A stretch of DNA of 37,429 bases, taken from an uncultured archaeon (lineage in GTDB: Archaea; Asgardarchaeota; Thorarchaeia; Thorarchaeales; Thorarchaeaceae). Both the position numbers and the translations under genes were made by a program. The DNA is taken from NCBI GenBank assembly GCA_964473825.1, contig CAYYQL010000024.1, positions 1 to 37,429 on the forward strand, written 5' to 3'. How positions within the stretch are numbered: the stretch's first letter is position 1; the number at the start of each line of letters is the position of its first letter. A model generated the notes under the pieces. The model saw only the letters and a program-made list of their open reading frames with translations, did not search any database and was not told the origin of the DNA. Positions 4,180 to 34,534 of this stretch are shown one piece after another.

Positions 4180-4551
4180 ATGCTTCATCTTGTTGCTCGT
4201 GTCAATCTGGAGAACCTTGACACTCAAGTTATCTATCCACGGGATCAAAAGGAAGAAGAGCGGATTGCGCTTCTGACTGGAATCGTCCAGCTTGTTTCAA
4301 CTGCTCTTGAACGTTCGGGTAGCCCGTCAGCCAAGGGACAGCCCATGTTCATGAAATCTGAAAGGGGAGTTATAGGCTACTGCACTGTGAAAGACGATCT
4401 ATTCATCTGTCAGGGTGATGCTGAACGGGAAACGGGTGACGCGCTTAAGATGCTGGCGAAGACACCAAAGGCATCTGACGAAGAATTATCTGATGGTATC
4501 GCTGATTTGGTATCTAAGCGCGGAAAGGAAATCGGAGATCTTTGGAGGTAG
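4180..4551 (+). CDS. Hypothetical protein, possible longin/roadblock-like fold
   Basis: About 123 aa after a GGGGGTGA RBS. Apparent beta-beta-alpha(ALLTGIVQLVSTAL)-beta-beta-beta-alpha pattern; the fold is inferred by eye. Confidence 0.6.
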   Translation: MLHLVARVNLENLDTQVIYPRDQKEEERIALLTGIVQLVSTALERSGSPSAKGQPMFMKSERGVIGYCTVKDDLFICQGDAERETGDALKMLAKTPKASDEELSDGIADLVSKRGKEIGDLWR

Positions 4552-4556
4552 AAAGA

Positions 4557-5966
4557 ATGGATTTCAGGTTAGCTTTCATTGTTGGCGGCGCTATTGCAAC
4601 ATTCATTCTAATCATTTCTTTGATAATCTTTGCTCGGGCATACATGCGACTCAGGGAGCGTCTGTCCTATCCTGTGAGAAGATCGCTCTTTCTCATGGGT
4701 GCAGCAGGTTCTATGATTGTGTTGGTGGGGTTCACTGCAGCGGTAGCAGTTATCCTGATAGATATCTGGCTTGTTATCTTCAGTTCTCTCATAATCAACT
4801 CAGAGGTTAGTCTGCTGAGCGATGATGCGGACACCCGTTTCATCGGAACTGTTTCATCTGTAGTTGTCACGTTTCTTGTTGTGTTGTTGAAATTCATAGT
4901 ACCCGAATTGGGAGCCTTACTAGCTGGTCCGCTATTGGTAGGAATGTTCGGTGTAGCTTTTCTGCTTGGCATTAAGCTGGCCCTCGCCTCTCCGTCACCG
5001 TTTAGTATTTCGCTGAACGTTCTCCTAATCTCGATGATTTCGACCTACGTGTTGGCTTCAACGGGCATTCTCGGATTTGCTCCTGAATACTTCATTATAA
5101 TAATAACCCCCGTCGTTGTTCCTGCAGCCATCTTTGCCGGGATGTCTCGGCCGTGGCGTTACATGGTTGTATTATCAATAGTGTTTCTGGCCCTGTCAGT
5201 AGGCATGTCCATGACTATTGTTTCGTATCTCTCAAATGAACCGTACATATACGCATATGTTCTTGCAGCTGCAGCAGCAGCACTTGCAGCGCTATATCCG
5301 CTGAATTACTTCTTGGAACAAGCTTCTATCACCGGCGCAAGAACCCCTGCATTTATTGCTGCTACCCAGGTAGCGATATGCCTCCTAGTTATCACTCACA
5401 GCATCGCGTGGGCTATAGCTTGGAACCACGCCATAGCTGAGGGACTGACAATCGCAGACGGTGTCTGGGATGTGCATTTCCTGTTTGTTGACTGGGTTCT
5501 TGGGGTTGCAGGCGTTTCGTGTCTCTTGCTTGCTGCGATTTCGACGAGTGGCAGCGAAAAGACCATTTCTATAACCATAGATTCTCTGATATTCATCGGC
5601 TTTGCCTTGATTGTACTCGGTCATCCGTTTGTCCGGGCTGAAAAGTACGAACTCGCTCTTCTCTATATGCCTTTGGCCGTATTGATTGTGATTGCCAGTG
5701 GAGCCTTCATTAGAGTGGCGGTCCGGATGAAGAAAGCAGGATCTACTTCAGCAGCAGCCCGCTTCATCATGTTTATCTTCGCTTCTTTGGGTGCTGGGCT
5801 GGCTGCAATGTTCTCGGATATGATGTGGATGATGTGGCCGCCTCTGGTCTTGTCAATCATGGTTGTAGTAGCTTTCATGTTGCTGGCAAGTAGCCCAACT
5901 GGCTTCAGGGCCCTGACGCGACTCCAGAGTCCGACCATTCCTTCACTAGGAGAGGATGATGCATAA
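4557..5966 (+). CDS. Polytopic membrane protein (~15 TM), paralogue A
   Basis: About 15 hydrophobic segments; GGAGGT RBS before ATG 4557. Shares SPSPF, PWR, FLEQ and C-terminal SSP motifs with the next gene. Confidence 0.8.
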   Translation: MDFRLAFIVGGAIATFILIISLIIFARAYMRLRERLSYPVRRSLFLMGAAGSMIVLVGFTAAVAVILIDIWLVIFSSLIINSEVSLLSDDADTRFIGTVSSVVVTFLVVLLKFIVPELGALLAGPLLVGMFGVAFLLGIKLALASPSPFSISLNVLLISMISTYVLASTGILGFAPEYFIIIITPVVVPAAIFAGMSRPWRYMVVLSIVFLALSVGMSMTIVSYLSNEPYIYAYVLAAAAAALAALYPLNYFLEQASITGARTPAFIAATQVAICLLVITHSIAWAIAWNHAIAEGLTIADGVWDVHFLFVDWVLGVAGVSCLLLAAISTSGSEKTISITIDSLIFIGFALIVLGHPFVRAEKYELALLYMPLAVLIVIASGAFIRVAVRMKKAGSTSAAARFIMFIFASLGAGLAAMFSDMMWMMWPPLVLSIMVVVAFMLLASSPTGFRALTRLQSPTIPSLGEDDA

Positions 5967-7348
5967 TGGATTTTACCCTGACATTGCAAATTGGGTCCAT
6001 AGTCACCGCCGGCATTCTTGTTATCTCAGCGGCTGAGTTCGGAAGGTCAATCTATGGCATTCGTGGTGATGTGTCCTCCTCAACCTTCAGGGCTCTTGTC
6101 TTCTTCGGAGCCGCTTCACTGGCCCTTGGCCTGATAGTGATCAATACGACCTTCGTGGCCGGAACCATTGGACAACGAACGTGGATTGCATTGTTCTTGG
6201 TGTTCATCATAGTTTCAGAGGTGCATGTTGCCACTGATAGCAAAAGGGCACATCGGGGCATCTACGTGGTTGCCATTTTCGCACTTTCTGCAGCAGCACT
6301 GGTCGCCATGCAGAGTCCAAGTGAAGTCTCTCCGATTCTGGCCACCGCTCTAGCCATCGCGGTTACAACCGCAATCTTGTTCGGCGCATGGTTGATCTAT
6401 GATTCTCCTTCGCCTTTCACTGTGGGTCTGCTTCTCCTTCTCGGCGCCTTTCTTGCTTCTTGGTCGATAATCACACAGGGAGTCTTTGTTCAGGAGATTG
6501 ACGTGAGTTCTTTCAATCTCTTTCTGATCCTATTCCTGCCTGGTATGGTCGCCTCGTCCATCATGATCTCGATGCTGAAGCCCTGGCGACAGATTCTCAC
6601 CAGCTTCATCGTGTTCACTTCAATCATGACCGCCACTTCAATCGGACTTGCGGCGCTTCTCACCTATTCTGCAGCGGTCGACCTTCAGATTGCGGTCTTC
6701 GTGTTCGCAACCTGCATAATAGTGGTATCTTCGACAGCTTCAGTCGACTTCTTCCTCGAGCAGTCTGCTGAAACCAATGCACGCATCCCCCTTTACATGG
6801 CGCTCACGCTTGTTTCAATTGCTGGGTTGCTAGTCTTACATATGTTGTTCTATCCGATGCTCCTGCTGACAGGCATCAACGAGGATCCTTTGCTATCTTA
6901 TATTCAATGGATTCTGGGCATGACGGGGACTGCCACCTTTGTTATCGGAGGGTTCTACTCCGTTATCACCAAGAAGACTGTTGGCTACTTGAGGCGAGGG
7001 TTGCTGATATTCATCGCCGTGATGGCGGTTCTAGCCAATCCTGTAATTCGTTCGGATTCTCTTGGTGTGACATATAGGTGGGTGTACGATGACCTCTTTC
7101 CATACCTCCTCGGAGTAATCTTGGTGGGTGTGGTCGGTTATATGCTAGTGGTTAGACGGTTGCGTCGAGTGGGCTCTCATCGAGCAGCACGAAACTTCAT
7201 GTCCTTTGCATTCTCTGCGCTGGCCACTGCGGCTGTCATATTCTTTTCTGACGACCTTCCGTACGTCGTTATTGTGGGGCTCATTGTCGTACTTGGCAGT
7301 CTAATGTTGTCAAGTAGTCCTAGAAGAATCGCTGGTGATACAAGGTAA
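5966..7348 (+). CDS. Polytopic membrane protein (~15 TM), paralogue B
   Basis: TAATG stop/start overlap with paralogue A, with collinear shared motifs. Confidence 0.8.
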   Translation: MDFTLTLQIGSIVTAGILVISAAEFGRSIYGIRGDVSSSTFRALVFFGAASLALGLIVINTTFVAGTIGQRTWIALFLVFIIVSEVHVATDSKRAHRGIYVVAIFALSAAALVAMQSPSEVSPILATALAIAVTTAILFGAWLIYDSPSPFTVGLLLLLGAFLASWSIITQGVFVQEIDVSSFNLFLILFLPGMVASSIMISMLKPWRQILTSFIVFTSIMTATSIGLAALLTYSAAVDLQIAVFVFATCIIVVSSTASVDFFLEQSAETNARIPLYMALTLVSIAGLLVLHMLFYPMLLLTGINEDPLLSYIQWILGMTGTATFVIGGFYSVITKKTVGYLRRGLLIFIAVMAVLANPVIRSDSLGVTYRWVYDDLFPYLLGVILVGVVGYMLVVRRLRRVGSHRAARNFMSFAFSALATAAVIFFSDDLPYVVIVGLIVVLGSLMLSSSPRRIAGDTR

Positions 7349-17645: not shown

Positions 17646-18218
17646 ATGGTGATCAGAGTCGTGTCTGTTCCAGCTTACAAGCTGTTACTAGTGGGCGATG
17701 CCAATGTGGGGAAGTCATCGTTGATTCGCTGGCTTCTTCTGGGAGATTTTGACCCTGACTACACGGCAACTGTAGGTGTTGACCTGAGTGCTGTTGCACT
17801 GAATGTGGACGGAAAGACTCCTGTCATCATGACCATGATCGATTTAGGGGGCCAGTCCGATTTCACGGCGCTCAGGACGCAATACTACAAGGGCGCTCAT
17901 GGTGCTGCACTTGTCTATGACATATCCTGTCACGCTTCGTTTGAGAATCTAGAGACATGGCATGATGAGCTGAAAGAACATATCGAAGAGCCAAACGGCG
18001 TGTCTCTTCAGGGTGTCGTGATTGGAAATAAGATTGACAAGGCAGGGTCAAGAGAGGTGCCGCGAATCGAAGGCAGATCCTTCGCAGATAGCATCGGTTG
18101 GCCATTTCACGAAACAAGTGCCAAGTCTGGTGAACATGTTGAGGATGTTTTTGCGGCGCTTGCTAAGAGAATGTATGTGTCCCACCCCCCTCTGAAGACC
18201 CGAGCCGCCCACACCTGA
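17646..18218 (+). CDS. Rab-like small GTPase
   Basis: GDANVGKSS, YTATVGVD, DLGGQ, YYKGAHGAALVYDIS, GNKID and ETSAK. Confidence 0.93.
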   Translation: MVIRVVSVPAYKLLLVGDANVGKSSLIRWLLLGDFDPDYTATVGVDLSAVALNVDGKTPVIMTMIDLGGQSDFTALRTQYYKGAHGAALVYDISCHASFENLETWHDELKEHIEEPNGVSLQGVVIGNKIDKAGSREVPRIEGRSFADSIGWPFHETSAKSGEHVEDVFAALAKRMYVSHPPLKTRAAHT

Positions 18219-18413: not shown

Positions 18414-19355
18414 TCACTCATCGCCAAAGACGACTCTGTATCTCTCGCTGAAAGCCCCGTAATCCTCGCCGCTTGGTACAAACCTCTCTTTTCCTGAGAA
18501 TCTTATAGGAATCATTGCTTCTTTGTCGAGTCGCCATGGAATGTCTACAACAATCCTCAAGAAGTAGGAGGCATGAATAAGTGAAGAGTGGAAGGCAGCC
18601 GGCCACCTGCTTGAGAACATGAATGAGAGATTGTGCCAATGCTTACCCATCAGTTCTTCTTTCTCTGTGAAGTGTTCCAGAACCTTTCTCTGGGCCTTTT
18701 CTTTCACTCCCCGAGGTGCAACTCTCTCAATATACAGGAGTTCAGCTCTGATTCCCCTCATTTCAGGATCTCCCTGAATGTGATATCGGAAAGTGAACGG
18801 TTCGTCATAACGAACTAGGTCTTCCGGAATCTCGATTCTGACCGTATCTTGCCCGTCTTGAAAAACCTGGGCTGTTTTCGTTTTGGGTCTCAGAACCGGG
18901 ACCCGATGGCTAACATTAATGGAAATGCTCGATTTGAGGTCGAAGGCCCATGAGACCTCTGTCTTCGCATGACACTGATATTTTACGCGGCCATGGATTC
19001 CTTGATACGAACCTGGAATCTCGGCCGGGAGCCTAATCTTGAAGGGGTATTGGTGCTCACCTGGTTCTATGCGCGCGCTGCTTATCAACTCAACAAGTTG
19101 TGATACATGAGTTCTCTTCTCCCTATAGACACGCTTGTCGTCGCCTGAACCTCGAACTACGCGGCTTTTCTCTTCGCCTTGTAGCTGGATGGTGACGCGA
19201 TTGCATCTGAAATCGTCATCGCAACGCAGGAGGACATGACCCTCAACGTATTCACCTGGGTTGAATACCGGCTTCCCTGTTTCTATACACATTTCCCTCA
19301 TGGCAGGATTTCTCTTCTTGTGATTCCTATAATATCTTCTGCGAGTTTCCAACAA
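18414..19355 (-). CDS. Arrestin-fold protein (alpha-arrestin/Vps26/Spo0M-like)
   Basis: FNPGEYVEGHV, IQLQGEE and PGEHQYPFKIRLPAEIPGSYQGIHGRVKY match the arrestin N-domain. The C-half (SSLIHASYFLRIVV...IPI) resembles the arrestin C-domain. Start uncertain (19355, 19301 or 19292). Confidence 0.8.
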   Translation of the reverse strand: MLETRRRYYRNHKKRNPAMREMCIETGKPVFNPGEYVEGHVLLRCDDDFRCNRVTIQLQGEEKSRVVRGSGDDKRVYREKRTHVSQLVELISSARIEPGEHQYPFKIRLPAEIPGSYQGIHGRVKYQCHAKTEVSWAFDLKSSISINVSHRVPVLRPKTKTAQVFQDGQDTVRIEIPEDLVRYDEPFTFRYHIQGDPEMRGIRAELLYIERVAPRGVKEKAQRKVLEHFTEKEELMGKHWHNLSFMFSSRWPAAFHSSLIHASYFLRIVVDIPWRLDKEAMIPIRFSGKERFVPSGEDYGAFSERYRVVFGDE

Positions 19356-19527: not shown

Positions 19528-21039
19528 TCAGATTCCGAAGAGATCTGAGTACTTAACATTCAGGTAGTCCAAGAAGGGTTTTGCCTTGAGACTGCTGCCT
19601 GTGACATTCTTGACAAGATCTGCTGGGTCATACATGGAGGAGTGGCGATGGATGTTTTCGACAAGCCACCTCTTGATTGGCGAGAAATCTCCGCTTGGAA
19701 TGTTCCTCCTCCAGTCAGGCAAGTCTTGGCTTATCTGGTTAAACCACATACCGTCGTAGACGTTTCCCATGGCATAACTTGGGAAGTAACCGTAGTACCC
19801 GCTTGCCCAATGGGTGTCCTGAAGAACACCTTCTCCATCGTGCTCGATTTCAACACCGAGATACTCATCATACTTTTCGTTCCAGATCTGTGGAAGCTCC
19901 GAGATTGATATCTTGTCTGAGAAGAGCGCCTTCTCTATTTCGAAGCGTATAATGACATGCAGGGAATAGGTGACCTCGTCTGCCTCGATTCGTATCTTGG
20001 ACGGTTCAACAAGGTTCACAGCCTTTACCCAGTCTTCCTTTGGCACATCTGCAAAGATGTCACCGGTAAGAGTCCTGAATCTTGGATAGTAGTAGTCCCA
20101 GAACTCGGGAGAGCGACCATACAGGTTCTCGACAAAGCGGCTCATCGATTCATGGATACCCATACTGGCAGCCTCTCCTATGGGCTGGTACATCCAGTCG
20201 TGATTCAGGTTCTGCTCATACAAGGCGTGGCCTCCCTCGTGCAGAATCGCAAAGAGCATCGAGGCTACGTTGTTCACATGGTACTTGACGGTGATTCTAA
20301 CATCATCAAAATATCCTGTCGTGAATGGATGCTCTGTTTCGTCAATCCTACCACCCGCTTCTTCAGAGCTGATGTCATACTGGATTACTTCTGCCAAGTC
20401 CTTGGCAATCTTCCTTTGTGTTGCTACCAGTACTGGTCGCCTCTTGAATTCTCCATCGAAATCTGAAGTGGCCTCTACGCATTTCTTGACCAGCGGAACA
20501 AGACCATCTTTCAGTTCACTGAAGACTTTGTCTATATCGTCTTGAGTCATTCCTCTTTCAAAATCATCAAGCATCGAGTCGTAGATGTTGGAAACACCCT
20601 TGACATCCAACATATACCCATGTCTTTCTCGCTCGAGAGAAACCATCTTCTCAAGTTCTGGTTCGAATCTCTTCCAATCCTTTGCTGCCTTCGCCTTCTT
20701 CCAGGTCTCTACCGACAATGCCTGTTGTCTTGCAATCTTGGCAACAAGCTCAGAGGGTACCTTCGTTTGCTGGTCATACTCTAACCTAGCAAGGTATATG
20801 TTCCGTTTCTGTACTTCATCAAGTCCACTTGTCTTCTCAGCCTCGGATATCAACTCTCCAGTTTCAGGGGCAACGAGCATCTCGTGAGCAATCCTCGACA
20901 AATACGAGATCTGCTCGCTTCTAAGATGTACACCCTTCGGCGGCATATAGGTTTCAAGATCCCAATGAATCTGGTTTCTTGCTGTGGCCACAAGAGTTAG
21001 TTCCCTAATCCTTGTCATAAGCTTCTCATAAGCATCCAT
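19528..21039 (-). CDS. Carboxypeptidase M32 (Taq-type)
   Basis: WDLETYMP, HPF, DVRIT, HEGGHALYEQ, GIHESMS, IRIEADE, GVLQDTHW, GYFPSY. Confidence 0.95.
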   Translation of the reverse strand: MDAYEKLMTRIRELTLVATARNQIHWDLETYMPPKGVHLRSEQISYLSRIAHEMLVAPETGELISEAEKTSGLDEVQKRNIYLARLEYDQQTKVPSELVAKIARQQALSVETWKKAKAAKDWKRFEPELEKMVSLERERHGYMLDVKGVSNIYDSMLDDFERGMTQDDIDKVFSELKDGLVPLVKKCVEATSDFDGEFKRRPVLVATQRKIAKDLAEVIQYDISSEEAGGRIDETEHPFTTGYFDDVRITVKYHVNNVASMLFAILHEGGHALYEQNLNHDWMYQPIGEAASMGIHESMSRFVENLYGRSPEFWDYYYPRFRTLTGDIFADVPKEDWVKAVNLVEPSKIRIEADEVTYSLHVIIRFEIEKALFSDKISISELPQIWNEKYDEYLGVEIEHDGEGVLQDTHWASGYYGYFPSYAMGNVYDGMWFNQISQDLPDWRRNIPSGDFSPIKRWLVENIHRHSSMYDPADLVKNVTGSSLKAKPFLDYLNVKYSDLFGI

Positions 21040-21114
21040 GTCTATCACATCATAGCCTGTCTGATGTTCTGGTGAATGAGAAGACAAGTAGGTTTCGGTT
21101 AATTGTCTTTGTAT

Positions 21115-22047
21115 TCAGGTTATGGGAAGCTCGGCACCCGCTTCCTCTTGTCTGTCTTTGATTGGGTAGTTCACAATAATGATGGCAGCGGTGACACATG
21201 CAAGCCCTGCAAGAAATGTCCAGTATATGACCTCGCTCAATAGCCACGCCGATAGCAGCGTACCGAAGATTGGAACGAGGCTTAAGAAGACTCCAGAACG
21301 TGTGGCCCCGATGTTCTTCACAGCCTCGAAGTAGAGAAGATAGCTCAGAAAGGTCACTACCGCTCCCAGAAACGCAGTGTTGATCCAGAATTCAGGAACT
21401 CCGAGAGCAGGCTGCAGCCAGAAACTCTCCGCGGAGGCGGCGACGCTGAAGAGTAAGAATCCGACGAAGGATGCTCCTGCAACCAGATTCAGCGAGGACA
21501 TTCTCTCCATGATTCGTCTTCCTGCCACTGAATAGAGCGCCCAGATACAGGTAGCAATAATCAGAATCACGTTACCGAAGAGATGTTCGAAATTGAGAAC
21601 TAGCAGATATTGAACTCCGACAGCAAATACTATGCCAAGGAAACCAAGAACCAATCCCGAGTACTGCCATTTCTGCGGAAGCTGCTCTTGAAGTATGAGG
21701 CTTGCGAATATTGCGATTGTGATGGGCTGGATGCCATCGATAATAGCTCCTTGGGCAGATGTTGTGTACACCAAGCCTGTCAGTTCCATAACCTCGAAGG
21801 CAAAGATACCAAAACCACCCACAAGAATCAGGGGCTTGATATCGCTCCTCTTGAATCGCTTGTGCGCCGGTTCACCCCTAAGGGGCATGAAGATGAGAAA
21901 GGTGATGCTTGCAAAGAAGTACCTGAAGAGCCCGACAGTCATCGGTGTTGCCAGTCCAACCGCCACATCCTTGGACACCCATGAAAAGCCCCACAGCAGC
22001 ATAGCCATTACCAACATGACATAGTACTTGACATCGGGTCTCTCCAT
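21115..22047 (-). CDS. EamA/DMT-family transporter (paralogue 1)
   Basis: About 10 TM; LLWGFSW, WALYSV, IGATRSGVF...LVPIFG. Confidence 0.9.
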   Translation of the reverse strand: MERPDVKYYVMLVMAMLLWGFSWVSKDVAVGLATPMTVGLFRYFFASITFLIFMPLRGEPAHKRFKRSDIKPLILVGGFGIFAFEVMELTGLVYTTSAQGAIIDGIQPITIAIFASLILQEQLPQKWQYSGLVLGFLGIVFAVGVQYLLVLNFEHLFGNVILIIATCIWALYSVAGRRIMERMSSLNLVAGASFVGFLLFSVAASAESFWLQPALGVPEFWINTAFLGAVVTFLSYLLYFEAVKNIGATRSGVFLSLVPIFGTLLSAWLLSEVIYWTFLAGLACVTAAIIIVNYPIKDRQEEAGAELPIT

Positions 22048-22189
22048 TTGAGTTCACAACCCATCCCGGTTAATCTGAGGACCCTGTACGGGAAATAAAA
22101 ACGCATGGATTCATGGGAAGAAGTCCTACAGTACAGTCATAACAGTACATTTTTACTTATGGCTCTCATCAGCCGACTATGAGGTACCC

Positions 22190-23602
22190 ATGACAACTTG
22201 GACTTCTTCTGCAGACTATGAGCAAATCAAGGCCGCCGTGACCTATTCTGGAGGCGAAGAGGGAAAGTGGCTCACTTTCGGTCCTATTGGAGACCATCCA
22301 TTATCTGGCAAGCTATTCCCTCCTTACGACCATGAAGGTATGGTCAAAGACCTTGAGGAGCTACGACACATTCTAGAATACGCTACTAGTGCTATGGTAT
22401 TCGACATAAAGCAACTCTTGCAAGAAACACTCAATGAGTGGAAAGAGGACAAGGCCAGACTCAAGCGAGTGATTCTGGGCTGCTTCCCCGATTACGAGCA
22501 AGAGCGAATTGAGAAGATCTTTCATGATCGGTATTTGATTGATATTTCTGCAGGAGATCTCTTTGGAGAGAAATGCCCACTCTTATCGGGAGGGGCGTTC
22601 GAGTTTGGCATTCGCCCTGTCAAGGGTATTGTCAACACGCAAGATTTAGCTCATATGACAGCCGAGGGTCTGATCCTTGGACAGATGTCGTCATGGTATC
22701 GCTCACGTGAGAATCGCATCATGGATGTGGTTGTCAGAAATCACCCGCTGTTCTTGGAGAGATGTCCTTCTATCATCGCTTTAGATGATGGGCAATATCT
22801 CTCGGGCGGTGATATAGTCAACATCGATGAGAACCATATGGCGATTGGCATACGGTCATTCACAGACAGAGAGTCTGCCATCGAGATATCCAAGAGGCTT
22901 CCTGACAAGAGGATATACGCAGTGCTGAAGTTTCCGCAGGAACTTGGAAGTACATGGGTTGCTCACTACGGCAAGCATCTCGACTACATGTTCACGATGT
23001 TGGATAAGGAACGTGCGATGATACAGCCTTACATCTTCGACTATCCCAAGGGAAGCCGAAAGACTCTGCTCAAGATGCTTCAGACCCTGAGCGATGATCT
23101 CTACAAATGGGAACCAGTGAGGGAGGAGTCTGATTTTCAGAAGGACCGATGGGCTGAGATTCCTGACAGACTCAAGCCCAGAATCGAATCTCGAGTCTAC
23201 GGTGGGCTCTCACGAGAACGAGTCAATGCCTTGAAAGACGTCGGTAGCGTCGAGATATATGAGAACGGTAAGCTTGTGGAACAGAATCCGAGCTTCGTGG
23301 ATTCTCTTGTAGATGAGGGATTGCTCGACCCTGATGAGATCATCCTCGTTGGTGGCGATCCCAACAACATCGACTATCGAAACGAATACGAGCATTGGCT
23401 GACTTCTGTCAGAGAGGGGGCATGGGCGTGCTCCGCGGCTGTTCTAAAGCCTAATACAGTACTTGCGTACCATGACATGGAGAGGACCAACGAGAACCTA
23501 CGTTATCACGGCGTAGATACCTACGAGATAGATGGACGCTTTGTGAAGCTGATTCATCGAACTGGGCTCTCTAATTTCATCCTACCCCTATGGAGGGCTT
23601 GA
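22190..23602 (+). CDS. Arginine deiminase/amidinotransferase-fold protein, probably lacking the catalytic Cys
   Basis: NTQD, RSRE, LSGGD, HLDYMFTMLD and RTNENLR motifs. The C-terminus RTGLSNFILPLWR has Asn at the nucleophile position. Confidence 0.75.
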   Translation: MTTWTSSADYEQIKAAVTYSGGEEGKWLTFGPIGDHPLSGKLFPPYDHEGMVKDLEELRHILEYATSAMVFDIKQLLQETLNEWKEDKARLKRVILGCFPDYEQERIEKIFHDRYLIDISAGDLFGEKCPLLSGGAFEFGIRPVKGIVNTQDLAHMTAEGLILGQMSSWYRSRENRIMDVVVRNHPLFLERCPSIIALDDGQYLSGGDIVNIDENHMAIGIRSFTDRESAIEISKRLPDKRIYAVLKFPQELGSTWVAHYGKHLDYMFTMLDKERAMIQPYIFDYPKGSRKTLLKMLQTLSDDLYKWEPVREESDFQKDRWAEIPDRLKPRIESRVYGGLSRERVNALKDVGSVEIYENGKLVEQNPSFVDSLVDEGLLDPDEIILVGGDPNNIDYRNEYEHWLTSVREGAWACSAAVLKPNTVLAYHDMERTNENLRYHGVDTYEIDGRFVKLIHRTGLSNFILPLWRA

Positions 23603-23603
23603 T

Positions 23604-25034
23604 ATGTGGAATGTAAAGGCACGATACGACACTCTCAAAATTGCGATTGTTGAACCCGGACGAGCGGAGCGGTGGTGGGCTACACCTGTCAACGGAGAGT
23701 ACCCAATCGCTTGGGGCTGCGTTGACTTGCCCTATCACACCCACTTCACTAAACTGGAGTCTGACTTGCAGCGTCGAGACCTGCAGAACACCATGCAGAA
23801 TGCCGTGAAAGGAGAGCTCCCAGGTGTGAAACTGTTGACCTTCAGGCAGTTGCTCCAAGAAACCCTTGACGAGTACCGAGAGGATGAATCCAAGGTCAAA
23901 GACATCGTTATGAGGTGTTTCCATGAGTGGGACCGACCTCGAGTTGAGAAGCTCATAGGAGGCAACTGGAGTGATGTCACAGCGGCTCAGATAATCGGTA
24001 GCGACTCCCCTCCTCTTATCAGGGATGGAGATGACTTCAAGGTCGGGATACGGCCGACGCCCTGGGTCCAGAACATCTCAGAAGAGGGCTGGATGACAGA
24101 CCAAGGATGGGTCTACTGCAACAAGAAGACGTGGTGGCGCTCGCGAGAGGATGAGATAACACACGCGATAGTCGAGAATCATCCCGAATTCATAGAGAAC
24201 GTACAGGTGCTTCTGGATCTGAAACCTCCTGCTTACATGGAAGGTGGTGACCTGCGGGCACCAAGCGAGGACACGATTGCAGGCGGTGTGGGATGGCACA
24301 CGAATCTCGAGGCGATGAGGCAAATCTCAGAGGCTCTACCCGAAAAGACAGTCTATGCAGTCCAGAAGGCTGACATAACCGAGGAAGACTTCACTGATGA
24401 GGTCTATGACTTCGGCTGGCATTTCGAAACCTTCCATTGTGAGGTTGACAAAGGGAAGGGTTTGTTCTTACCTTACATGAATGACTACCCAAAAGGTGGT
24501 AGGAAGAAATTCATAGAGTGGCTGAAAGCACTCAAGAGGGATATCGAAGAATGGCATCCTCTTCTCAGGAGATTGCGTGAGAAAGAGATTGAAGTGCCCC
24601 CCGAAGAAGAGAAACGCATCAAGGAGAATGCCCTCAAGGACCTCACCGACGAGAAGATTGCTACTCTCAAAGATGTTGGGAAAGTCTACACCTTCAAGAA
24701 GGGTGAACTGATCTCCAAGCGAGATAGCTACTTACAGGCACTGATTGATGATGGCGTCATGGACGAGGATGGTATCATTTGGTATGGTGGCGACCCGAGC
24801 TGGTTTGAGAATCCTCTGGAGCACTTGACTTCTCTTGCCGGGGCCTTTGCGGCCAAAGCTGAGATTGCAGAATGTCTTAGCCCAGGAGTTGTGTTGGTAT
24901 TCGAAGAGGCTGAGAACACTATCAAGGCCTTGGAGGAACATGGCTGTCGTGTTGTTACATATTCAGCATTCTATCAGAGAAAGACCGGTGGGCCCGGCCC
25001 AGATTGTTCATTCTGTCCACTTCACAGGGAGTAG
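23604..25034 (+). CDS. Arginine deiminase/amidinotransferase-fold protein with catalytic Cys
   Basis: RSRE, MEGGD, WHFET and C-terminal GPGPDCSFCPLHRE; collinear with the upstream paralogue; 1-nt gap. Confidence 0.78.
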   Translation: MWNVKARYDTLKIAIVEPGRAERWWATPVNGEYPIAWGCVDLPYHTHFTKLESDLQRRDLQNTMQNAVKGELPGVKLLTFRQLLQETLDEYREDESKVKDIVMRCFHEWDRPRVEKLIGGNWSDVTAAQIIGSDSPPLIRDGDDFKVGIRPTPWVQNISEEGWMTDQGWVYCNKKTWWRSREDEITHAIVENHPEFIENVQVLLDLKPPAYMEGGDLRAPSEDTIAGGVGWHTNLEAMRQISEALPEKTVYAVQKADITEEDFTDEVYDFGWHFETFHCEVDKGKGLFLPYMNDYPKGGRKKFIEWLKALKRDIEEWHPLLRRLREKEIEVPPEEEKRIKENALKDLTDEKIATLKDVGKVYTFKKGELISKRDSYLQALIDDGVMDEDGIIWYGGDPSWFENPLEHLTSLAGAFAAKAEIAECLSPGVVLVFEEAENTIKALEEHGCRVVTYSAFYQRKTGGPGPDCSFCPLHRE

Positions 25035-25041
25035 TTCAGAT

Positions 25042-25965
25042 TCAGTCGACGTCACCATCGGACATTACCTCTTGTGCAAGGGGATAGTTGATCAAAGAGA
25101 TGCCCACAACCACCAGTATCAGACCAACAATGAATGTCCAGTAGATCGGCTCATTCAAGAGTAAAAATGACAGCAGGGTACCAAAGACTGGAACCAGATT
25201 GATGAAGCCCCCAGCTCGTGTAGCCCCTAGATTACGAATACTCTCGAAGTACAGGAAAAACGATACGAACGTGACCAACAGGCCCAAGAATAGCACGTTG
25301 AACCAGAAGACGGGGTCAGCGAGGGCAGGGAGAGTCAAGACATTCTCTGTCATGGAGCCAAAACCAAAGAGTACACATCCGACCAATGAACCGCCGAAGT
25401 TCAGTTCAGCTGCACTGACTTCCTTCATCGCCTCTTTCCCAACGGAGGAGTAGAGACCCCAGATCATCATCGCCATCAGTATGATAAGATTCCCAATGAA
25501 GTAGTCGATCTGGAAGTCCAGTAATGCTTGTACTCCGATGACAAACACTACGCCCGTAAAGCTCAGGACAAGACCGGTGTACTGCCATCTTCTGGCTAGC
25601 TTCTCTCCATGAATGAAGTGAGCAAATATAGTGATGCTTGTTGGATTAAACCCAGCAATGATTGCACCCTGAGCTGCAGTGGTCAGACGCATGCCGAAGA
25701 GGAACAGGACTCCGTAACCGAAGACGCCTGTCAGTCCGGCGAGAGAAACAAGTTTCAGACTTCTTCCAGTGAACAATCTACGAAAAGAACCGCCAGTAGC
25801 CTTGACTAACACAAGGAAGGGCAAAGTAGCAATCAAGAACCGGAAGAAACCGACGGTGAATGGTGGGGCAATCTCAACGATGATGTCTGCAGAGACCCAC
25901 GAACCGCCCCAGAAGAACATGGCTAGAATCAACGTGAGGAAGTAGAATCTGTCTGACTTTGCCAC
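25042..25965 (-). CDS. EamA/DMT-family transporter (paralogue 2)
   Basis: FWGGSW, AQGAII, WQYTGLVL, LGATRAGGFINLVPVFG. Start set at GTG 25965 by alignment with paralogue 1. Confidence 0.88.
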   Translation of the reverse strand: MAKSDRFYFLTLILAMFFWGGSWVSADIIVEIAPPFTVGFFRFLIATLPFLVLVKATGGSFRRLFTGRSLKLVSLAGLTGVFGYGVLFLFGMRLTTAAQGAIIAGFNPTSITIFAHFIHGEKLARRWQYTGLVLSFTGVVFVIGVQALLDFQIDYFIGNLIILMAMMIWGLYSSVGKEAMKEVSAAELNFGGSLVGCVLFGFGSMTENVLTLPALADPVFWFNVLFLGLLVTFVSFFLYFESIRNLGATRAGGFINLVPVFGTLLSFLLLNEPIYWTFIVGLILVVVGISLINYPLAQEVMSDGDVD

Positions 25966-26136
25966 AGTTTTAACCCTCTGTTGGGCTCTCAAGTCATGGG
26001 ATGTTTCAGAATCAGGGTTGGCGTATCCCCACTCATTACACTTGAACGAGAATCTTAACACCCATAGGCTTGAGTGTTTCATTCGCGATATCCCATGCTA
26101 TATAAGCACTCCCTGAGTTAACTATAATGAATAATA

Positions 26137-32305: not shown

Positions 32306-33292
32306 CTATCTCCTACGGTTTTCGATGAGTATCAGAACCAATGTAACAACACTGATACTACCAACAATCAGAGCGAGTTGCTGATAGTCGATGCCGTATC
32401 CGTTACCAGTCTCATCACCATTTCCATTTGGATCCGGACTGGGTCCTGACATTCCGACAATCGGGTCATAGAAGAGTGAGTTATTTCCGAAGTGTTCAAA
32501 GGAAAGATAGACGGATTGCCCCTCTTCTCCATCTGTCCCTGAGCCATATGACCCTCCTACGGCCACTGTGCTGGTTCCCGCGTAAGCCTCCTCGGCAAAC
32601 TCAATATAGCTAGGTCCAAACTCAAAGAGGTTGTCCTGTTGTTCGAAGCGTGATGGCGGCTCCTTGTCCCCGGCCTCCTGGTCGCTTTCAGATATCACGA
32701 ACTGAAATACGAGTATCGAGTCGTCATACCTCCATTGCCAGCCAGACAGAGAGACCCCGAATTTGAGTTCGTTTGGATTGGATGCGTTGATTGAAACGTG
32801 GATTTGAATCTCAACATCGAATTCAATCTGTGAAGGAGTGGTAGGCACCGTCGTGATTGGAGTCGTAGTAGGAATGGGTATTGAGAAACTTGCTGTGGTG
32901 CTGAGGTTGAAGTGTACGGATTTAACAATGGAGTCTTCCTCCTGTGTATAGAATCCGCTAAAGTCCCAGTTCATCCCAGGAAGGATAAACGGAATACCGA
33001 CAATCATGTCTGTGGAGGGGTCAAACAATCCATCTTCATCTAGATCCTGTACTTCAATTAGCTTGAGAAACTGTAGATGATAGTTCTTTTCTGGAGCTGA
33101 CCGATTCCACCACCAGAAGTGAGGTACCTGGTTGCTAGCGCTTATCCTGACGCCAATTTCATTCGTAGTTAATGTGGCGATGCCCGCTCCATAAGAGTAC
33201 TCGATTCCACCCATCTGGGCGGTTGTGTGGGGAAGCATCATTAGAATTAGCACTAAGACGACATACACTCCGGTCCTGCACCGCTTTTTCAT
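32306..33292 (-). CDS. Cell-surface glycoprotein-like protein, paralogue 1
   Basis: Signal peptide, DLDEDG loop, P/T-rich linker, C-terminal TM plus RRR; collinear with 33530-34534. Confidence 0.75.
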   Translation of the reverse strand: MKKRCRTGVYVVLVLILMMLPHTTAQMGGIEYSYGAGIATLTTNEIGVRISASNQVPHFWWWNRSAPEKNYHLQFLKLIEVQDLDEDGLFDPSTDMIVGIPFILPGMNWDFSGFYTQEEDSIVKSVHFNLSTTASFSIPIPTTTPITTVPTTPSQIEFDVEIQIHVSINASNPNELKFGVSLSGWQWRYDDSILVFQFVISESDQEAGDKEPPSRFEQQDNLFEFGPSYIEFAEEAYAGTSTVAVGGSYGSGTDGEEGQSVYLSFEHFGNNSLFYDPIVGMSGPSPDPNGNGDETGNGYGIDYQQLALIVGSISVVTLVLILIENRRR

Positions 33293-33529: not shown

Positions 33530-34534
33530 TCAGCGCTTGACCTTGATTATCACAGCCGCCAGGACTACTACGGCAACCACGCCTCCAATCAGTATGAGCT
33601 GGTCGGAGGTAACGAGATCAGGTATAATCTCTGTGCCATTCCCGTCACCATCGCCGTTATCATCGCCGTCAGCTGTTGTTCCAGATGAAACTCCAAGGAT
33701 TGGATCGTATTCGAGGGTTTCATTACCAAAGTACTCGAAAGCAAGATAGACCGATTGGCCGTCCTCGTCTCCGGTTCCCTCTCCGTGAGTACCCTTCACC
33801 TGTATAGGTGTTTCACCAGCTACTGCTTCTTCAGCGTACTCCATGTATCCTTCGCCAAACTGGAACTGGTTTTCCTCTTGAACGAACTCAGGAGGTTCAT
33901 CAGATCCCGTTTCTTCACCGTGTTCACTCTGAGTTATTGTGAACTGGAAGACCAGCATCGAGTCCTCTGAGGCCCACTTCCACCCTGATATGACAATATC
34001 GAACTTCATCTCATGAGGGTTCGATGTGTCGATGTGTACACGGATCTGGATTGTGACCTCGAAGTTGGTCGGTGCTTGGGCTGTGGTCGTAGTTGTGGTG
34101 GGTGTTGGCAGAGTGAAATTCTCTGTTTTGGTGAAGTTGAAGTGGATTTCGGTCACTACAGAGTCTTCCTCCACCGTTTCAAAGCCACTGAAATCCCACA
34201 CACCTGCCGGTAGCAGATAGGGAGCTCCTACGATGGTATCCGTTTCAGGATCAAAAGCGCCGTTGCCGTCGGTGTCGTTGACCTCCAGCAATTTCAGAAA
34301 CATAACATGGTAGTCAGTTTCATTCGACGTAGCATTCCACCAATGGAAATGAGGTACTTGGTTGTATGCCGTGACCTTGACTCCGATCTGGTCTGTCGTC
34401 AGGCTTGCCAGTCCCTCATTGAATTGGTATTGGATTCCTTGCTCTTGCGCAGCTGCCATCGGCACTAACGCTAAGAGCGCTATTGCCGCAAGGGCCGCTG
34501 CAATTCTTGAGTGATTCGCGTTCATGTTTATCAC
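33530..34534 (-). CDS. Cell-surface glycoprotein-like protein, paralogue 2
   Basis: Signal peptide ...AAAQ, NQVPHFHWWN, DTDGNG loop, poly-Thr, D/G linker, C-terminal TM plus KVKR. Confidence 0.78.
   Translation of the reverse strand: MINMNANHSRIAAALAAIALLALVPMAAAQEQGIQYQFNEGLASLTTDQIGVKVTAYNQVPHFHWWNATSNETDYHVMFLKLLEVNDTDGNGAFDPETDTIVGAPYLLPAGVWDFSGFETVEEDSVVTEIHFNFTKTENFTLPTPTTTTTTAQAPTNFEVTIQIRVHIDTSNPHEMKFDIVISGWKWASEDSMLVFQFTITQSEHGEETGSDEPPEFVQEENQFQFGEGYMEYAEEAVAGETPIQVKGTHGEGTGDEDGQSVYLAFEYFGNETLEYDPILGVSSGTTADGDDNGDGDGNGTEIIPDLVTSDQLILIGGVVAVVVLAAVIIKVKR

Follow-up and report, generated by a model that had tools for sequence, protein, structure and literature searches.

Positions 1 to 37,429 of contig CAYYQL010000024.1 of assembly GCA_964473825.1, from an uncultured archaeon of the family Thorarchaeaceae (Asgardarchaeota), form a stretch of 37,429 nucleotides (nt; hereafter the window) that harbours two tandem genes of the arginine deiminase (ADI) family, designated ADI1 and ADI2 (Table 1). 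The product of the first gene has lost the catalytic cysteine, while that of the second retains the catalytic triad in an otherwise remodelled active site. We give somewhat better than an even chance to the reading that the two proteins assemble into a heterodimeric pentein-family enzyme, in which ADI2 would be the remodelled catalytic subunit, ADI1 its non-catalytic partner and the substrate a compound other than arginine.

Table 1. Positions of the gene pair, its putative ribosome-binding motifs and the adjoining genes in the window
Feature	Position	Strand	Remarks
ADI1	22190..23602	+	Open reading frame, 470 amino acids (aa); apparent pseudoenzyme of predicted arginine deiminase fold
ADI2	23604..25034	+	Open reading frame, 476 aa; presumed catalytic subunit
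Shine-Dalgarno-like GAGGT	22181..22185	+	4 nt 5' of the ADI1 ATG; read from the sequence
Shine-Dalgarno-like GGAGGG	23592..23597	+	Within the final ADI1 codons, 6 nt 5' of the ADI2 ATG; read from the sequence
M32 (Taq-type) carboxypeptidase	19528..21087	-	Pfam Peptidase_M32, E 2e-169; adjoins the upstream EamA gene
EamA-family transporter	21115..22047	-	Pfam EamA; divergent from ADI1
Second EamA-family transporter	25042..26082	-	Pfam EamA; faces ADI2 tail to tail, with the stops 7 nt apart

The original prediction for this locus, made from the letters of the DNA, had described tandem ADI-like genes lying 1 nt apart at 22190-25034 and had quoted characteristic motifs for each. Both descriptions hold: the open reading frames (ORFs) match exactly, the two products belong to the Pfam family ADI (PF02274) and are paralogues of each other (32% identical across 485 alignment columns, E 3e-75), and all the quoted motifs are found in the translations. 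These are VNTQD, WYRSRE, LSGGD, KHLDY and RTGLSNFILPL for ADI1, and NISE, WWRSRE, MEGGD, WHFET and GGPGPDCSFCPL for ADI2. Between the TGA stop of ADI1 and the ATG of ADI2 lies a single base (T, 23603); this tight gap, along with the GGAGGG motif inside the 3' end of ADI1, is consistent with translational coupling of the two genes. The GAGGT motif ahead of ADI1 sits in a divergent intergenic region of 142 nt that is common to ADI1 and the upstream EamA gene. In profile searches, both proteins pass the Pfam cut-off of 22.8 bits (66.6 bits for ADI1 and 43.9 bits for ADI2) and both fail the arcA equivalog TIGR01078 (56.9 and 47.3 bits, respectively, vs a cut-off of 489.1), which the arcA control proteins pass with 566 (P0043) and 508 bits (P0057). 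In public records, close homologues bear the names Candidatus Thorarchaeota or Promethearchaeia.

AlphaFold2 models built from alignments of 125 rows predict, for both proteins, an alpha/beta propeller carrying the ADI-type helical domain, with values of the predicted local distance difference test (pLDDT) of 92.8 for ADI2 and 93.5 for ADI1. In Foldseek searches, the best matches of both models are solved arginine deiminases (4BOF, 1LXY, 1RXX and 4E4J; E 1e-15 to 1e-19, target template-modelling (TM) score 0.72-0.78), reached by ADI1 at E 1e-19 (TM 0.73-0.77) and by ADI2 at E 6e-18. Amidinotransferases, DDAH, ArgZ/AgrE and NnhA follow far more weakly (E 1e-6 to 1e-9). Because the solved ADIs are by far the better fold matches, the predicted structures place ADI1 and ADI2 in the ADI branch of the guanidino-group-modifying superfamily and not among DDAH- or amidinotransferase-like proteins. 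A comparison with ADI, DDAH and amidinotransferases had been proposed along with the original prediction; as carried out on these models, it finds the ADIs nearest.

Residue states were assigned by aligning the ADI1/ADI2 family with P0043 and P0057 (both above the arcA cut-off) and reading off the canonical positions (Table 2), among them Arg401 of the Pseudomonas aeruginosa enzyme, which we take to be a binder of the amino-acid end of arginine. In the Mycoplasma enzyme, Cys398, His269 and Glu213 form the catalytic triad, and Asp161 and Asp271 (M. arginini) bind the guanidinium group and stabilise the (tetrahedral) intermediates, while Asn155, Arg180 and Arg232 hold the alpha-amino and alpha-carboxylate groups of arginine, and Phe158 and Met268 clamp its aliphatic chain (PMC3474736). 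The roles of the canonical ADI residues were also drawn from PMC11659421.

Table 2. Canonical ADI positions (M. arginini numbering unless stated) and their counterparts in the window proteins
Canonical position	ADI2	ADI1
Cys398 (nucleophile)	C468	N462
His269	H273	H263
Glu213	E213	S205
Asp161 (FTRD Asp)	E160	D152
Asp271 (HLD Asp)	E275	D265
Arg180	R179	R171
Asn155	W154	G146
Arg232	H232	F224
Phe158	N157	N149
Met268	W272	K262
P. aeruginosa Arg401	G463	R457
Residue preceding Cys	D467	S461

ADI2 retains the complete Cys468-His273-Glu213 triad, D216 and R179/R181/E182, and is changed at W154, N157, E160, H232, W272, F274, E275, G463 and D467; within its clade, the ADI2 states listed in Table 2 are fixed, and the three triad residues, D216 and R179 are invariant. 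The original prediction had located the catalytic cysteine of ADI2 in the C-terminal motif. A cysteine is indeed kept there, with the refinement that the motif has two, of which C468 (the cysteine of 'DC') is the catalytic equivalent, its position being assigned against the solved P. aeruginosa enzyme and the arcA proteins P0043 and P0057; C468 is invariant in the ADI2 clade and C471 is not conserved. At the two guanidinium positions, the change from Asp to Glu proceeds stepwise within the clade (D/D in P0013, E/D in P0012, E/E in the rest) and is then fixed. In the 108 nearest ADI-like representatives from outside the family, the FTRD aspartate (Asp166) is Asp in 108/108 and the HLD aspartate (Asp280) in 107/108, and the Cys and the His are each kept in 107/108. 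Since 107 to 108 of these 108 relatives keep the Asp and Cys residues, the loss of Cys from ADI1 and the Asp-to-Glu changes of ADI2 are true departures from the family norm. As a whole, the residue map of ADI2 argues against free L-arginine held in the canonical way, and leaves room for a substrate with a different head group, or with an amino-acid end that is blocked or missing.

In ADI1, the mapped catalytic and binding positions are D152, R171/R173/E174, S205, D208, F224, H263, D265 and N462. The original prediction regarded this protein as non-catalytic, and its orthologues agree: none keeps the Cys, the position being N, S or D in all eight full-length members of the clade. Other positions vary within the same eight members, viz. 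Glu224 (S, A or E), His278 (H or R) and Asp280 (D or N); the second guanidinium aspartate, present as D265 in the window protein, is Asn in 7/8 clade members. R457, at the Arg401 position, is not conserved across the clade, while D152, R171/R173/E174 and D208 are clade-invariant. Selection was estimated from orthologue pairs of the window's genus and of a second genus by the Nei-Gojobori method, as the ratio of nonsynonymous to synonymous substitution rates (dN/dS). The ratios are 0.117 (window's genus) and 0.055 (second genus) for ADI1, and 0.028 and 0.010-0.022, respectively, for ADI2, compared to 0.04-0.16 for five neighbouring genes in the window's genus. ADI2 thus has the lowest value in the neighbourhood, and ADI1 evolves approximately 1.5 to 4 times as fast as ADI2. 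Relaxed selection on ADI1, which would have spoken for a decaying copy, is not seen in either genus; the gene is under purifying selection. Because the Cys is lost clade-wide and yet dN/dS is low, ADI1 is, as far as sequences can tell, a maintained pseudoenzyme whose catalytic positions drift while the rest stays constrained, and not a decaying gene.

The ADI1/ADI2 family is rare and the two genes are closely linked. When 1.84 billion representatives were searched with a profile, only 10 proteins were returned at E < 1e-30, and out of 400 genomes of the phylum, 6 harbour the genes, these belonging to two genera of one family. A look-up of ADI2 in the ESM Atlas returned viral clusters and generic ADI clusters, none of them informative. 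ADI1 lies directly 5' of ADI2 in all five genomes in which both are assembled, the sixth locus being cut by a contig end, and no genome among the 400 was found to carry just one of the two genes (the truncated sixth carrier aside). The same order recurs on the metagenome contigs L027 and L028, and P0007 and P0008 are also encoded on one contig; the gap between ADI1 and ADI2 is 1-25 nt at all related loci. A fused ADI1-ADI2 protein of the window's family was not found among the strongest hits of a representative search made without a length limit. The tandem arrays of this family differ between lineages: on contig L028 (1-2234), an ADI1-like gene stands between two ADI2-like genes, and on contig L031 (587-2468), P0012, in which the Cys is retained, precedes a P0013-like paralogue that is cut at residue 144.

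In the maximum-likelihood tree, the family forms one clade (100/100), within which the Cys-less ADI1 proteins form a single clade (100/100). P0012 and P0013 fall on the ADI2 side, the P0013 cluster bearing Bathyarchaeota names, and P0014, which has the full catalytic set, branches apart. An origin of ADI1 from a still-active P0013-like partner was considered and discarded, as the approximately unbiased (AU) test rejects a grouping of the ADI1 clade with P0013 and the P0013-like paralogue of L031 (L031b; p = 0.0003). Therefore, the P0012/P0013-like tandem represents a separate duplication. The duplication that gave rise to ADI1 and ADI2 is itself old.

A heterodimer model, likewise proposed with the original prediction, supports binding of the two proteins. 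The predicted complex of ADI2 with ADI1 scores 0.90, 0.90 and 0.89 in three runs, vs 0.00 for the best of three controls; this score is reached by 58/80 solved complexes and by 2/110 mismatched pairs, counts that apply approximately, since the prediction was run on alignments of our own. At least 88% of the contacts agree between the runs, and the partner has a pLDDT of 90 or more. The predicted interface, in which about 250 residue pairs make contact, is very large and pseudo-symmetric. In both subunits it takes in loops beside the RSRE, EGGD and HxD/E motifs, and it also includes the N-terminal loop and the helices at approximately residues 295-350. Among columns conserved within each clade, the residue differs between the ADI1 and ADI2 clades in 16/27 interface columns vs 28/107 elsewhere, a pattern that fits a hetero-specific ADI1-ADI2 interface as modelled. 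Family-specific insertions, which account for 8% of residues, make up approximately 20% of the predicted interface. A heteromer of a remodelled enzyme with its non-catalytic paralogue, as originally suggested for this locus, is thus supported by conserved adjacency, the predicted complex, and the enrichment of clade-specific residues at the predicted interface.

In such an enzyme, the Cys468 thiolate of ADI2 would attack the carbon of an amidino, guanidino or ureido group, probably by the covalent mechanism of the family, with His273 (held by Glu213) serving as the general base, and the resulting thiouronium-type intermediate would then be hydrolysed. The pocket of ADI2 would present Glu in place of Asp as head-group carboxylates, would lack two of the three carboxylate-holding arginines, and would be lined by Trp154, Trp272 and Phe274. 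ADI1 would act as an obligate partner, packed on ADI2 through the large pseudo-symmetric interface that reaches the active-site loops, and may stabilise, gate or activate ADI2 without turning over substrate itself. A more far-reaching version, which is conceivable yet rather doubtful, holds that the two proteins form a pentein enzyme that is obligately heterodimeric and has a substrate or a chemistry new to the superfamily. It might deiminate N-blocked or peptide-bound arginine freed by neighbouring peptidases, or hydrolyse a compound with a smaller amidino or ureido head group; either way, the dead subunit would close or complete the live site across the interface. On this version, the pair would be the first case of an enzyme with its prozyme (a dead, activating paralogue) in the guanidino-group-modifying superfamily, occurring in Asgard archaea and related archaea of sediments.

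Several observations weigh against a heterodimeric enzyme. The Fisher p value of 0.002 obtained for the interface columns overstates the evidence, since the statistic uses related sequences; the ADI1 and ADI2 alignments share largely the same rows, and the complex score of 0.90 may reflect likeness to solved ADI homodimers and tetramers. As the L031 genes show, this family produces tandem paralogues repeatedly, and the neighbours of the pair differ between the two genera, so that the context gives no substrate. Lastly, Glu at both guanidinium sites might cripple catalysis instead of retuning it, in which case ADI2 would be non-catalytic as well. The corresponding reading, in which neither subunit is catalytic and the complex serves binding, sensing or scaffolding, draws on the fact that the Asp-to-Glu exchange at both head-group sites is unique with respect to the 108 relatives and could abolish catalysis; mutants of P. 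aeruginosa ADI at these Asp positions are severely impaired. We accord it a low probability, given that Cys468, His273, Glu213 and D216 are invariant in the ADI2 clade while the same positions drift freely in ADI1, that ADI2 is the most strongly constrained gene of its neighbourhood by dN/dS, and that the stepwise and then fixed D-to-E changes suggest retuning and not decay. A pair of separate homomers would accord with the homo-oligomeric state of solved ADIs (4bof, 1rxx and 1lxy): ADI2 would be a homomeric enzyme and ADI1 a distinct homomeric, non-catalytic protein that is merely co-transcribed (for example, a regulator or sensor of guanidino compounds, as its retained D152, R171/R173/E174 and D208 may leave a ligand pocket in place). 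This arrangement is unlikely in view of the heterodimer score, which supports binding at the level of a prediction, the concentration of clade-specific conserved residues at the predicted interface, the tight coupling of the ORFs and the lack, among the 400 genomes, of any with one gene alone.

A scattered ADI pathway, in which ADI2 is a divergent L-arginine deiminase passing citrulline to an ornithine carbamoyltransferase (OTC) and a carbamate kinase encoded elsewhere, was also weighed. Neither of these two genes, nor an arginine/ornithine antiporter, is found in the window or at the related loci, as had been noted for the window at the outset with regard to OTC and carbamate kinase; in the genome, an arcC that exceeds its equivalog cut-off lies on contig C31 and four OTC-type genes lie on C6, C39 and C21, the window itself being C24. 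These genes, the lack of a canonical arcA in the genome and the ADI structures as best fold matches speak for such a pathway. It is nevertheless improbable, as ADI2 is no ordinary ADI: it scores 47 bits vs the 489-bit arcA cut-off, both guanidinium aspartates are Glu, the binders of the alpha-amino and alpha-carboxylate groups are replaced (Asn155, Arg232 and Arg401 by Trp, His and Gly), and the Phe158/Met268 clamp has become Asn/Trp. Moreover, a link between the pair and the tandem carbamoyltransferases on contig C21 (24625-25635 and 26205-27317, both on the minus strand; locus L033), whose best NCBIfam match is N-acetylornithine carbamoyltransferase, below every cut-off, was tested and rejected, since their orthologues occur in 86/86 genomes of the taxonomic family and the ADI pair in 6, with no co-variation. 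The idea that both subunits are catalytic, ADI1 acting through another nucleophile such as the Cys that is invariant in the 'WAC' motif of its clade, finds a starting point in that conserved Cys near residue 414 and in the several pocket residues that are kept. It is the least probable of the readings considered here: ADI1 orthologues carry N, S or D in place of the nucleophile and vary at the triad Glu and His, and the 'REGxWAC' segment lies in the predicted interface, which would account for its conservation.

Arginine deiminases and their relatives are, by textbook account, homo-oligomeric cysteine hydrolases. The pair shares with ArcA (EC 3.5.3.6; TIGR01078; 1LXY, 1RXX, 4BOF and 4E4J) the Pfam family and the five-module alpha/beta propeller with its inserted helical domain, and ADI2 shares the Cys-His-Glu triad and the RxRE and EGGD motifs. 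Unlike ArcA, both proteins score approximately tenfold below the equivalog cut-off and are 60-65 residues longer, ADI2 has Glu/Glu for Asp/Asp and is without Asn155, Arg232 and Arg401, ADI1 is without the nucleophile, no arcB, arcC or arcD adjoins the genes, and a heterodimer of paralogues is predicted in place of a homo-oligomer. DDAH, Arg:Gly amidinotransferase, SxtG, HsvA, ArgZ/AgrE (arginine dihydrolase) and NnhA (nitrohydrolase) have in common with the pair the superfamily fold and covalent Cys catalysis, and show that this scaffold takes substrates other than free arginine; unlike the pair, they are without the ADI helical domain. To our knowledge, none of these enzymes has been described as an enzyme-pseudoenzyme heteromer. 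A literature search (covering ADI in Asgard archaea, pentein pseudoenzymes, and ADI heterodimers or inactive paralogues) did not find the ADI1/ADI2 family or ADI heteromers described.

In concept, the nearest parallels come from unrelated enzymes. In trypanosomatids, S-adenosylmethionine decarboxylase (AdoMetDC) is activated by a dead paralogue, the prozyme (PMC5201418); the same paradigm holds for deoxyhypusine synthase, which likewise has a dead paralogue (PMC3663545). As in these systems, ADI1 is a duplicate without catalytic residues that is under purifying selection and is predicted to form a heteromer with its presumably active paralogue; unlike them, it belongs to an unrelated fold and to other organisms, and for activation by ADI1 we rely on inference. 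Within the ADI family, a parallel is provided by two database proteins from metagenomes, P0047 (1005 aa) and P0095 (1067 aa), in which two ADI domains are fused. Their N-terminal domain has Cys replaced by Ser (GGPRS), D227 by N and R401 by H, and the C-terminal domain is fully canonical; hence, as in ADI1-ADI2, the dead unit comes first and the live one second, here in one polypeptide. They differ from the pair in their independent origin among canonical-type ADIs outside the window's family, in a live domain that keeps both Asp and all Arg residues, and in halves that are approximately 30% identical. By analogy, these fusions support the idea that dead and live ADI pairs may act together, and they suggest that dead-plus-live pairing recurs in the ADI family and has been overlooked in annotation; the proteins themselves appear to be annotated as plain arginine deiminase. 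Other architectures were also seen, namely P0087 (409 aa), a stand-alone ADI-like protein of canonical length in which His, Asp and Cys are replaced by Arg, Asn and Ser, respectively, the triple exchange also seen in ADI1 of the second Thorarchaeial genus; P0124 (1003 aa), with an M20 peptidase domain fused to an ADI domain; and P0048 (721 aa), with a DDAH domain fused to an ADI domain.

If the proposed heterodimeric enzyme is borne out, the pentein superfamily would join the short list of enzymes controlled by prozymes, and an as yet uncharacterised reaction of a nitrogen compound would be indicated for uncultured archaea of sediments (Thorarchaeia; relatives are found in Bathyarchaeia). All these proteins at present bear just the label 'arginine deiminase' or 'dimethylargininase'. 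None of the 108 nearest relatives from outside the family has the Glu/Glu head-group site, which offers a handle for finding a new substrate specificity.

The genomic surroundings of the pair contribute few clues to a substrate, and pattern scans for further loci added little, with 3 found in genome contigs and 6 short ones in metagenome contigs. The two EamA transporters that flank it in the window are paralogues; they were considered as part of the system and set aside, as they lie beside the pair in the window's genus only and are absent from the locus in the second genus, where the pair is located between an S9 peptidase gene (5', same strand, L016:5956-7797) and a radical-SAM gene. The M32 carboxypeptidase near the pair is a weak hint of peptide or amino-acid catabolism. 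On the 3' side of the pair, the window carries a thioredoxin gene and a gene of the isoaspartyl-peptidase/asparaginase family; an S9 peptidase gene lies 4.5 kb away. Peptidases are the sole recurring theme among the neighbours, itself a weak hint. The genome has a third PF02274 gene on contig C5 (L002:1195-2148), unlinked to the pair, whose short, DDAH-like product (317 aa) also matches DDAH_eukar and has an intact GGIGC Cys motif.

Other genes of the window were noted in passing. The adjacent ORFs 4542-5966 and 5966-7348 (+; 474 and 460 aa) lie in a co-directional cluster and have no Pfam match, as is also the case (at E up to 0.001) for the ORFs 32306-33292 and 33530-34534 (-; approximately 330 aa each). 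A leucine-rich repeat (LRR) protein is also encoded among the neighbouring genes. A Ras/Rab-like small GTPase gene (17646-18218, +) is convergent with a gene for a protein with arrestin N- and C-domains (18414-19355, -), both being typical of the eukaryote-signature proteins of Asgard archaea.

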